Shown here piece after piece: positions 28,697 to 31,898 of a stretch of 64,000 bases of DNA (the stretch's first letter is position 1; every line of letters starts with the position of its first letter). The stretch lies in NCBI GenBank assembly GCA_048884965.1, contig JBHLQH010000001.1, forward strand, positions 1 to 64,000. Reading direction: 5' to 3'. The position numbers and the translations under genes are program-made. The DNA comes from Candidatus Thorarchaeota archaeon. Lineage in GTDB: Archaea > Asgardarchaeota > Thorarchaeia > Thorarchaeales > Thorarchaeaceae. A model generated the notes under the pieces. The model had not been told where the DNA came from, did no database searches, and saw only the letters and a program-made list of their open reading frames with translations.

Positions 28697-28820
28697 TTTC
28701 CTCACGGAACTCTATGAATGAAATAAGATAACCCTTCGCTGCCACTGAGTTCAATCTTCTACACATCTTCTTTGGATGCATTCTTCTAATTCCAGAACAT
28801 TAATTGCGCATTGTTACCGC

Positions 28821-30461
28821 ATGGAACATAAGATGTTTCGAGATTCGTGGGCTGGTCTAATCACTGGTACTTGGGAAAAAATAGCCAACCGTGTAAATGA
28901 TGATTTCGGATTGGACTACATCAGTGCACCAGATGATATGCGGCCATCTTATGATTCTCGTCCAAGGGATTTTGGCGGGTGGATCGAAGGCAATCAACTT
29001 GTCCTGTCGAATGAGTGTCTGCGCGGAAAGATCCCTCATATCGGTGTTCTTGCTAGAGGGTATATGAGAAAGGCGTTGGCTACAGAAGGATTTGAGGAAA
29101 CAGTGCTAGAGGATTTCTCCTATGCGTTTGGTGCCCTCTGGTTGCCAATTAAAAACCTAAAGTATTGGTATGATAAGTGGAGAGAATTCCGTGAGTTCAA
29201 AGGAGATGAAGTCACTGGTCTCTATTACCCCGCCGCTGCATTCAATCTCTTCCAGAGCTTTTCGGGTTCTGATTACTTCAACAAATTGCTCAACGAGTAC
29301 ATCTTGATGAAACGGAATGGTCTAGTGCTTGAAGAGAACGACTATGTCCTACACATGCTTGAGCGAGTTCGCCGATTCTCTGTACAGCTGACCCAAACAG
29401 ACTTCAATCTCATCCGACGGCTTTTGGAATTTCCGGACACCAAGCGTGCTGATCTAGCAGCGGAAACAGGCAAGACAATATCATGGGTCTCTCGTAGACT
29501 TGTATCATTACAGGAGTATGGTGTGTTAAGAAAGACCTGTGAGGTGTTCTATCCCCGACTGGGCTTGAAGCAGCTTATCCTACTGATGAACAGCCAGGAC
29601 GAATCCTCTATCTTGGATTATATCAGCGAGTCACCCTTTCTATATTTTGCAAACCGCATCGTCGCTGGAGAATTTGATGTTGTTGCCATGCTTCAAATCC
29701 CCCAGAACTCGAATAACTTTCAATCTTTGAATACCTATCTCAGGATTCTTGCAGATCATGATATCCACACTGAATTATTCGATGTTTCTGCTATGCATTC
29801 CAACAGATGTTTCGATCACTATTCTGCCAAACGAAATAGCTGGGAGATGCCTTGGGAGCTCTTTGGACCACATTTGAGGCGAATCCATGATGAGAATTTG
29901 AGCACGCTCATGGCCCCCGAAATGCGTGCTTGTTCAAGAGCTGATTTGGTACTGAAACATCTTGATTTTCAGATTATCAGTGAGTACCAACGAGGACACT
30001 CTATGCGAGATCTTCGGTCTCACTTGGGAATTAAATATCAGCGACTGGTGCATCGTTTGAATCAGCTAAAGGCTTCTGATATCCTCCGTGATAGGTATGA
30101 CTTAGAACACTGTGGTTTACATGAGGCACTGCTTGTAAAGATTCCAGATCCTGCTCATGGTGCAGCGATCACTTCTTGGGCCCAACGACTACCATACACA
30201 CGCATCATTAAAGGGAGTAATGATGAGTATCTACTCTTCCTTCAGCTTCCTGATGGTGGACTTCAAGGCATGGCCATTGTTCTGCAGACACTTTCTCCGA
30301 ATTTGAAACCAATGCTACTCGATTCTCAACCAATCATCGGGAAATGGTATATCACTCCAGGGTCCTGGAATGATGCGGTCAATGGTCTATGGGATGAGAA
30401 AAAGCAGACATGGATGGGTTCTGAGGAAGAGGTTTCGGATTGGCTAAGGAACCTTCCATAG
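28821..30461 (+). CDS. Large transcriptional regulator: unknown N-terminal domain plus two HTH/AsnC-like modules
   Basis: LTQTDFNLIRRL..KRADLAAETGKTISWVSRRLVSLQEYGVL and LKHLDFQII..SMRDLRSHLGIKYQRLVHRLNQL. Confidence 0.7.
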   Translation: MEHKMFRDSWAGLITGTWEKIANRVNDDFGLDYISAPDDMRPSYDSRPRDFGGWIEGNQLVLSNECLRGKIPHIGVLARGYMRKALATEGFEETVLEDFSYAFGALWLPIKNLKYWYDKWREFREFKGDEVTGLYYPAAAFNLFQSFSGSDYFNKLLNEYILMKRNGLVLEENDYVLHMLERVRRFSVQLTQTDFNLIRRLLEFPDTKRADLAAETGKTISWVSRRLVSLQEYGVLRKTCEVFYPRLGLKQLILLMNSQDESSILDYISESPFLYFANRIVAGEFDVVAMLQIPQNSNNFQSLNTYLRILADHDIHTELFDVSAMHSNRCFDHYSAKRNSWEMPWELFGPHLRRIHDENLSTLMAPEMRACSRADLVLKHLDFQIISEYQRGHSMRDLRSHLGIKYQRLVHRLNQLKASDILRDRYDLEHCGLHEALLVKIPDPAHGAAITSWAQRLPYTRIIKGSNDEYLLFLQLPDGGLQGMAIVLQTLSPNLKPMLLDSQPIIGKWYITPGSWNDAVNGLWDEKKQTWMGSEEEVSDWLRNLP

Positions 30462-30514
30462 GGAAACAATATTGCTCAAAGAATGGAATTAGAGCTCACA
30501 ATCGTTACCATGTC

Positions 30515-30845
30515 TGGAAGAATCGTTGCGGGTTTCGTAATCTCCCCTTCTAAATGCTCTTTAGACTTCAATCCTTGGGCATTTCAAGGGGGGCTCGTTT
30601 TGGAGTATTCTATTATATACTGGATTTCACTTACATTGCATACGCCAGAGAGTTCCGAGTGATTGGAACTATCGCATATCTAGCGCCCCACGGCCGTGGT
30701 TGGGGGGGACCTAGAGCCCCCGTAATCACGATTGCATTTGGGAATGTAGAGGGGGGTTTCCTCAATCTCGAAAAGCCCGATTGCGATTCTCTTCACCGGC
30801 TCTTGATCCATTCGGGGGAACAGGATCAGGAGCCACTCTCTTCTC
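30515..30845 (+). ncRNA. Unidentified highly structured RNA candidate (about 330 nt)
   Basis: Nested helices 30519-25/30784-90, 30529-35/30773-79, 30543-52/30747-56 and 30589-96/30714-21; GUGA (GNRA) hairpin 30651-30670; 12-bp hairpin 30798-30834 followed by pyrimidine/U tracts; G-U pairs favour the plus strand. Confidence 0.55.
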
Positions 30846-30925
30846 TCTAACTTTTCTTGCGTTGTTTGCCATCTTTTTTTATGAATGCTACTTACATCAA
30901 GGCAAGAAGTATCCTTGTGATCACT

Positions 30926-31030
30926 ATGAAGAAGCTGATGGAAATTATCAAACGTATCCTAGATTGGTTTGAAGGAACTGGTGATGAACTGGATTTCATG
31001 ACTCTGAAAGCTCATCGCCCCTCAGAGTAA
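30926..31030 (+). CDS. Small 34-aa protein with N-terminal amphipathic helix (below the ORF-track cutoff)
   Basis: MKKLMEIIKRILDWFEGTGDELDFMTLKAHRPSE; GTGAT RBS-like motif just upstream. Confidence 0.45.
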   Translation: MKKLMEIIKRILDWFEGTGDELDFMTLKAHRPSE

Positions 31031-31058
31031 CACACATGTATCATTGTTGACTGTGGGC

Positions 31059-31898
31059 CTACTCATTCAGGGCTCTAGGCAATATGTCATTCAGGATAAC
31101 AGATTCTCTTTTTGAGAGAGATTTGATTTTGAACAATAGAATGATTGCCAATGCGATAATGCCATTGATGAGCAGTGTGTACTGTTCCGGAATAATCAAC
31201 CCTCCCAGAAGTATTAACCCCCCCATGGCGTTGCTAGCCGCATGATAGAATGTGACTGTGAGTGGATTTCCATTTGAGGAATTGAACAACCATGTGTAGA
31301 TGATTGACACAGCTATCGTGTGCCCTATGAACAGGATAAATGATCCGTATATCTGTAGCATCTGACTCTCGTATACCAGAAAGTGTGGTATATGCCATAC
31401 TGACCAGATGATTCCCACTATGATGGAAGAAATGAATGCATTATATTTGGCTTGTAATGTCGATTGCGCATAACTTCTCCATCCTATTTCCTCCCACACA
31501 TTCAAGATGAACATCTGAAACAGGTATAGAACAAGTAGCATACCGTCTAAGAGCGGAAGCGAATCTGACATAGTTACTAGATTCATGACAATTATTGCTG
31601 AGTAGAATGTGAGAACGACAATGAGTATTGCGATAAGAATCCAGATTGGCGAGAATCTGCGCTTGAATGACCCAAAGAGTGCTTTTGGTCCATCTCCTCC
31701 GAACTGCAAATACATTATGATCACTGCTGCGATAGTGGGAGAACCACCACCTATGAGCATGAAGATACCAACTGCCTCTTGAGGAAACAAGCCATACGAT
31801 GAAAACACCCATGGCAGGTTTCCAATGACACCAATTCCAAGAGATAAGATGATGTAGCCAAGAAACGCCTTCGTGGATGTTATTCTTGCTTCTGCCAT
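31059..31898 (-). CDS. CPBP family intramembrane metalloprotease (CAAX protease/Abi)
   Basis: EEIGWR, WSVWH, HAASN motifs; multiple TM helices. Confidence 0.92.
   Translation of the reverse strand: MAEARITSTKAFLGYIILSLGIGVIGNLPWVFSSYGLFPQEAVGIFMLIGGGSPTIAAVIIMYLQFGGDGPKALFGSFKRRFSPIWILIAILIVVLTFYSAIIVMNLVTMSDSLPLLDGMLLVLYLFQMFILNVWEEIGWRSYAQSTLQAKYNAFISSIIVGIIWSVWHIPHFLVYESQMLQIYGSFILFIGHTIAVSIIYTWLFNSSNGNPLTVTFYHAASNAMGGLILLGGLIIPEQYTLLINGIIALAIILLFKIKSLSKRESVILNDILPRALNE

Follow-up and report, generated by a model that had tools for sequence, protein, structure and literature searches.

Archaeal trans-acting small RNAs transcribed from their own promoters include sRNA154 and sRNA162 of Methanosarcina mazei and the sRNAs of Haloferax. 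In bacteria, a regulator gene and an adjacent small RNA gene form modules such as OxyR/OxyS, GcvA/GcvB and SgrR/SgrS, in which the two genes are usually divergent. Lineage-specific small RNAs of such a sort are expected in most archaeal genomes, and in Asgard archaea hardly any non-coding RNAs have been charted. The RNA gene described here is found in a 64,000-nt stretch of DNA from a member of the Thorarchaeota (hereafter the window), in a non-coding gap (30462-31058) between a 561-codon ORF on the plus strand (28776-30461) and a convergent CAAX-protease gene on the minus strand (31059-31898), with purH farther on. Comparison with related loci makes it very likely that an independent structured non-coding RNA is encoded at 30640-30857. 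The broader reading, of a stand-alone, structured, plus-strand RNA of ~215 nt with its own TATA promoter that would act in trans as a riboregulator, appears reasonably probable when its identity is weighted most. The RNA represents a new family of a well-known kind of RNA and was found only in a single genus of Thorarchaeota.

The upstream ORF encodes a regulator whose true start is probably Met20 at 28833, where its orthologues begin, giving a protein of ~542 aa (28833-30461, plus strand). A TTAATTG box ~30 nt upstream of this start suggests a leaderless mRNA. The protein consists of a ~180-aa uncharacterised N-terminal region rich in invariant Trp and of two tandem Lrp/AsnC modules, with PDB profile matches to the full-length Lrp/AsnC proteins PH0061 (at 185-316) and LrpC (at 372-480) and weak Pfam matches to HTH_24 and MarR_2; its AlphaFold model (mean pLDDT 56) is too poor to use. 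Genomes of the archaeal family each encode 1-4 paralogues of the regulator family. Orthologues (50-77% identity) occur only in the genus of the window, the paralogues of other genera being ~25-30% identical. In another genus of the same family (L068, at ~1500-1730 of contig C52 in G011; L069-L076 and L031), a conserved CAGCTTATATACTAAGAA promoter and a conserved, structured element, UUGGGACC...UGUAACGAAAAACC...GGUCCCAGGGGUCUGG...CAGACCCC, come after a paralogous regulator gene. The element precedes a 230-aa wHTH gene and is present in 10 out of 28 genomes. This element has neither a match in Rfam nor detectable homology to the RNA described here.

Twelve loci (11 distinct sequences), taken from genome representatives and from contigs encoding orthologues of the regulator, were compared. 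All share one layout on the same strand, namely the regulator gene, a hairpin, a spacer, a TATA box and a conserved AYACGCC, and the RNA directly follows the regulator gene in each. The outer neighbours vary between loci, with purH, a CAAX protease, an AP endonuclease or Fe-ADH downstream, and a Zn-ribbon protein, a redoxin, NMO or flavodoxin upstream. The two closest relatives, whose regulator protein is 77% identical, served as the baseline for identity. Their DNA is 90 and 80% identical to the window at 30640-30729, 91 and 85% at 30730-30797 and 95 and 89% at 30798-30834, against 54 and 55% in the spacer (30515-30597). The coding sequence of the regulator is 71-73% identical overall and 41-47% identical at third codon positions. 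Hence, with 80-95% identity, the RNA is under much stronger constraint than the spacer or the third codon positions. Its indels, located in loops, comprise 1, 2 and 5 nt as well as whole hairpins; these sizes are not multiples of three and fit neither a coding sequence nor a DNA site of fixed spacing. All of this support comes from 11 distinct but related, non-independent sequences of one genus, whose core was aligned by fitting to the model.

A covariance model was seeded on the simplest orthologues and rebuilt once (R1 to R2). The R2 model finds the core of the RNA on the plus strand and at the orthologous place in 11 of the 12 loci at E<1e-3, L051 being found weakly. Of the six remaining genomes of the genus, five gave one match each; the assembly of the sixth reaches 60% completeness and lacks the regulator orthologue as well. 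Outside the genus, R2 matched none of the 80 other genomes of the family and none of a 151-genome sample of the phylum (with stricter Infernal filters, under which weak matches may be lost). The RNA is single-copy in the 4.09-Mb assembly, and each relative carries one copy, always at the orthologous place. When a collection of metagenome contigs was scanned, a protein pattern retrieved no relatives, and a conserved 19-mer of the RNA (see below) retrieved five unrelated coding sequences, none of which matches the core.

The promoter (30602-30619, plus strand) consists of a TATA box, ATTATATAC, at 30611-30619, preceded by a conserved GGARCCAYTSY block. In the alignment of orthologous loci, TTATATA is identical in all twelve and the full 9-mer in ten. 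Counted from the first T of TTATATA, the conserved AYACGCC (30640) begins 27 nt further on, with a gap-free alignment across the twelve loci. Such a distance lies within the ~25-30 nt looked for between the TATA box and the 5′ end of an archaeal non-coding RNA gene. In the same genome, T-rich boxes also stand ~30 nt upstream of the genes for RNase P RNA and SRP RNA. The RNA would be transcribed from the TATA promoter at 30611-30619, with a start, and therefore a 5′ end, predicted at 30640-30642. At the other extremity, the 3′ end would fall in the U-rich tract at 30851-30857 or, at the latest, in the run of seven T at 30874-30880. The limits of the ~215-nt RNA (30640-30857) are predicted ones; the segment itself is supported by its identity to relatives and by the z-score of the fold. 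Two observations count against this explanation, which are that the block 5′ of the TATA box is unlike a textbook purine-rich BRE and that some relatives have a weak U-tract, or none, behind the terminal hairpin.

An inverted repeat of ~48 nt (30462-30512, plus strand) immediately follows the stop codon of the regulator, ~100 nt 5′ of the RNA promoter, and is aligned in all twelve loci. Its stem, GGWAACRA/UYGUUWCC, carries a loop that contains AUUGY and GUUCAC. The outer stem folds in 10-11 of the 12 loci, where the pairs differ between species and the pairing is mostly kept. It may serve the regulator mRNA as a 3′-UTR or terminator hairpin, or else be used as an operator by the RNA promoter. 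The spacer of ~80 nt that separates it from the TATA box is poorly conserved and close to neutral.

The universal core of the RNA (30640-30729, plus strand) is ~75 nt long and forms three hairpins, as defined by the R2 model and the paired cells of its alignment. H1 (CGC 30643-45/GCG 30683-85) encloses the conserved loop CAGARAGUWCC, H2 is formed by CCAC 30688-91 and GUGG 30696-99, and H3 pairs a G-run (30704-08) with CCCCC (30717-21), a G-run facing a C/U-run across loci. In the core helices, 98.2% of the cells are paired and four pairs are changed on both sides, while sliding the partners by 1-3 columns leaves 47-64% paired; because this alignment follows the model and is made of related sequences, these figures are supportive and do not amount to a formal test. 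The loop of H2 varies from 3 to ~40 nt between species, which fits an RNA hairpin and is unlike a DNA site of fixed spacing. In a subset of loci the core also carries an inserted hairpin, GUUCC/GGAAC (30652-30669, plus strand). Its stem is kept in the window and in L046, L044 and G004 with differing loops, and the other loci lack the hairpin.

Downstream from the core, a long internal hairpin (30731-30787, plus strand) with an apical branch is predicted from the minimum free energy (MFE) fold and a three-sequence alifold, and is built on AUUGCA/UGCGAU and UUGGG/CCCGA. All five pairs of UUGGG/CCCGA are kept in the three closest sequences, although with little variation, so that covariation support is weak; in the G001 group, two shorter hairpins stand in place of the long one. 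The 19-mer CCGAUUGCGAUUCUCUUCA (30777-30795, plus strand) is identical in all seven clade-A sequences. In folds, its 5′ half pairs within the long hairpin here, and in the G001 group within a short one (UCGCAAU/GAUUGCGA), while its 3′ half, UUCUCUUCA, is a C/U-rich linker left unpaired and is a candidate seed. The 19-mer could also be conserved partly as a DNA site, given that it has TTGCG in common with the promoter motif of a small ORF further downstream. The terminal hairpin (30798-30834, plus strand), which is clade-specific, has 12 bp and a conserved G-rich loop, UUCGGGGGAAC (30811-30821), invariant in clade A; a C/U-rich tail comes after it. In a plain MAFFT alignment of the seven clade-A sequences, all 77 cells of this stem are paired, with four pairs and 11 cells doubly changed, compared to 20-56% for slid controls. 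Several of its wobbles (U-G and G-U) would read as A-C mismatches if the minus strand were the RNA and are hence compatible with the plus strand only. Together with the core, a one-strand structure supported by covariation, as looked for in an archaeal non-coding RNA gene, is therefore found in 11 related sequences, with a fitted alignment for the core. An RNAalifold pairing of the G-run with the tail was discarded, since it involves purine and pyrimidine tracts in shifting registers and is uninformative.

A preliminary description of the locus, made from the window alone, had proposed a ~330-nt multi-branched RNA at 30515-30880 built on nested helices. The complementary segments are all present, the outer helices being AGAATCG 30519-25/CGATTCT 30784-90, CGGGTTT 30529-35/AAGCCCG 30773-79, TCCCCTTCTA 30543-52/TAGAGGGGGG 30747-56 and GGGGGCTC 30589-96/GAGCCCCC 30714-21, and so are TTATATA (30613-19), the CCAC-GGCC-GTGG hairpin (30688-99) and the 12-bp hairpin. 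The inner helices keep every pair in the two closest relatives, whereas the outer ones mostly break: among the four outer helices and a further one that spans the TATA box, four of the five retain only 3-8 of 7-11 pairs, and CGGGUUU/AAGCCCG retains 6 of 7. Two proposed loop features did not survive comparison. The GUGA tetraloop, which was taken for a GNRA loop, caps the clade-specific inserted hairpin with its variable loop, and the self-complementary GGCC of a supposed kissing loop is not conserved across loci. The plus strand, to which that description pointed, is supported by the wobbles of the 12-bp hairpin and by the fold scores. The fold of 30640-30857 has a z-score of -3.41, with none of 200 shuffles as good, against -1.83 on the minus strand. 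The whole 366-nt stretch reaches -2.98 on the plus strand and -2.14 on the minus strand, a signal that comes from 30640-30857, as 30515-30639 alone is unremarkable (z -1.0). The description had also mentioned a shorter transcript of ~200 nt starting after TTATATA at 30613, and this is the reading that the comparative data favour. The AGAGAG/CUCUCU closing stem suggested for it is possible in most clade-A sequences, in shifting purine/pyrimidine registers, and is uninformative.

A search of Rfam 15, which had been set beforehand as a check, returned no match at the gathering score in the 64-kb window or in seven orthologous or related loci. A relaxed scan of 30300-31100 and of the orthologous loci gave scattered chance matches, none of them recurring at the RNA; those to blv_FSE and lncRNA models fell by chance on the G-run hairpin. 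That the RNA lacks SRP and RNase P features was likewise borne out: neither archaeal model matches the window, and the genome encodes its RNase P RNA (RF00373) at C16:41010-41342 (157 bits) and its SRP RNA (RF01857) at C50:11887-12197 (84.5 bits, E 3e-19). The latter match (L002) is full-length and is below the gathering score of 96.5, and the archaeal SRP model of Rfam seems to fit this lineage poorly. Both RNAs resemble the one described here in size class, multi-helix architecture, G/C-rich stems and possession of a promoter, and differ from it in that their models leave the window unmatched. MITEs and other structured repeats are similarly non-coding, hairpin-rich and intergenic, and are ruled out by the presence of a single copy in the genome and of orthologous places in each relative. 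The aligned sequences, upon inspection, have no conserved C box (RUGAUGA) or D box (CUGA) of a C/D-box sRNA, and the GUGAUUG at 30659-65 lies in the clade-specific insertion and is not conserved. An H/ACA sRNA was also rejected, the terminal 12-bp stem being uninterrupted and followed by CUC and not ANA, and the middle hairpin being followed by UCUCUUCA. Riboswitch-type leaders have in common with the RNA a compact, conserved multi-hairpin core directly after the promoter. The RNA differs in that most loci have no same-strand gene downstream (the downstream gene is convergent in G004, G003, G006, L051 and G005) and in that the recurrent small ORF is separable, being unlinked in three genomes. 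With no Rfam match, a single copy and compensatory changes among the homologues of relatives, both in the core and in the 12-bp hairpin, the earlier suggestion of a novel Asgard non-coding RNA is upheld.

This small ORF (34 aa, 30926-31030, plus strand) contains the motif DWFEGTGDELD, its translation is conserved in six loci, and it is a neighbour and not a part of the RNA. The protein is genus-specific, 34-45 aa long, with an invariant (L/F)(L/V)(D/E)WF-x-GTG(D/N)ELD, and has no match in Pfam or NCBIfam. In its promoter region (30856-30883, plus strand), a CTTGCGTYG motif precedes a T-rich run that resembles a TATA box. In G003, G006 and G005 the ORF is found on other contigs with the same CTTGCGTYG and T-rich box and nothing RNA-like upstream, and the RNA core occurs without the ORF in six of the twelve loci (G004, G003, G006, L051, G005 and L049). 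Since it is unlinked and has its own promoter motif, the ORF is a separate gene of which the RNA is not an obligate leader, and this in turn bounds the 3′ end of the RNA to ~30851-30857 (at the latest 30874-30880). In this genome and in one related contig, an inserted CAAX-protease (Rce1-like) gene separates the small ORF from purH; in the other clade-A relatives, purH follows directly.

Several other explanations of the conserved region can be weighed against an independent RNA. The most serious of these is that the region belongs to the regulator mRNA, as its structured 3′ UTR or as a piece derived from that UTR, and is co-transcribed through read-through; the RNA is always directly downstream of the regulator on the same strand, no run of at least five T separates the stop codon from 30640, and the conserved hairpin at 30462-30512 makes the 3′ region of the mRNA itself structured. 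However, a TATA box that is invariant and keeps the same distance to the conserved 5′ end, and a near-neutral spacer between hairpin and box, are hard to reconcile with this origin, which is considered improbable. Similarly, the preliminary description had offered a leader for the downstream peptide as one of its two interpretations, and the ORF does lie 3′ of the RNA on the same strand in six loci, with a T-rich run in between that could permit read-through. A cis-regulatory 5′ leader of this kind is nevertheless quite unlikely, given the relatives in which the ORF, with its own promoter motif, stands on another contig and the six loci that hold the RNA core alone. Even less credit can be given to the ~330-nt multi-branched molecule as the functional RNA, although its outer helices all exist in this genome and the whole stretch folds better than shuffled sequences: besides the loss of pairs in relatives, the 5′ strands of the outer and TATA-spanning helices (30519-30608) belong to the least conserved segment, upstream of the promoter, the invariance of their 3′ partners has other causes, and the MFE fold uses none of these helices. 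The ends and the outer architecture of that fold are hence unsupported. Finally, the CCAC..GTGG dyad and the G-run resemble archaeal origin recognition boxes, and TTGCG-type motifs are repeated at 30526, 30732, 30782 and 30856, so that a DNA-level element, either an array of regulator sites or an ORB-like origin box, has to be considered. Such an element is the least likely of all, as the dyad spacer varies from 3 to ~40 nt, the G-U wobbles and compensatory changes point to RNA, and neither an AT-rich unwinding region (GC 0.48-0.50), a skew turn nor an orc1/cdc6 neighbour is present; the G-runs, moreover, are all on one strand and the neighbours are not Orc1.

For an independent RNA, the question becomes what it does. 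In the proposed mechanism, the RNA would act in trans, its exposed C/U-rich segments (UUCUCUUCA and the tail) pairing with purine-rich sites, for instance those of ribosome binding; the invariant C/U-rich linker and tail, lying between stable helices, resemble a base-pairing seed. A role as trans-acting base-pairing regulator is put forward tentatively on these grounds. A search of the genome for antisense targets gave matches of 12-14 nt, the best being 13-14 nt, which is the chance level, and complementarity of the RNA to the start of the small ORF is not conserved when judged by eye. The regulator mRNA, being apparently leaderless, offers no ribosome-binding site to target. The alternative is an RNA that mainly binds protein or serves as a scaffold in an RNP by means of the invariant loops CAGARAGUWCC, GGGGGGGAC and UUCGGGGGAAC, in which case the partner may be the adjacent winged-helix protein. 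This role is doubtful but nearly as likely as that of a base-pairing regulator. Loop sequences are kept more strictly than stems, the RNA is co-inherited with the regulator gene at all twelve loci despite changed neighbours, and the antisense search found no target, all of which would suit a protein-binding RNA; on the other side, the recognisable domains of the neighbour are DNA-binding Lrp/AsnC modules, and its N-terminal domain is too poorly modelled to judge by (mean pLDDT 56).

By analogy with the bacterial modules, the adjacent regulator would probably control the RNA promoter, with two candidate operators, the inverted repeat (30462-30512) and the conserved block just 5′ of the TATA box (30602-30610). 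The locus might be a two-component module, in which the RNA is the single output of a ligand-sensing regulator, as in an archaeal version of OxyR/OxyS, or, alternatively, forms an RNP with it, the invariant G-rich loops being held by its N-terminal domain; this proposal is speculative and on balance unlikely. If true, it would represent a dedicated, co-inherited module of an RNA and a tandem-Lrp protein, so far from one genus of Thorarchaeota. The linkage between RNA and regulator offers a concrete, testable circuit of a factor plus an RNA in a lineage that, to our knowledge, lacks a genetic system. The RNA gene is open to direct check in metatranscriptomes, and the RNA, its promoter and the covariance model could seed a new RNA family.

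Among described systems, archaeal trans-acting sRNAs are intergenic, promoter-driven, 100-250 nt long and lineage-restricted, and have stable hairpins flanking an exposed conserved segment. The RNA described here is like them in each of these respects, whereas the Rfam scans revealed no relationship in sequence or model. The bacterial modules differ from the present pair in that their genes are usually divergent and not in tandem, and in the nature of the factor, which here is a tandem Lrp/AsnC protein with an uncharacterised N-terminal domain. The likeness resides in the organisation, the gene of a factor and that of a small RNA being inherited as a unit in both.
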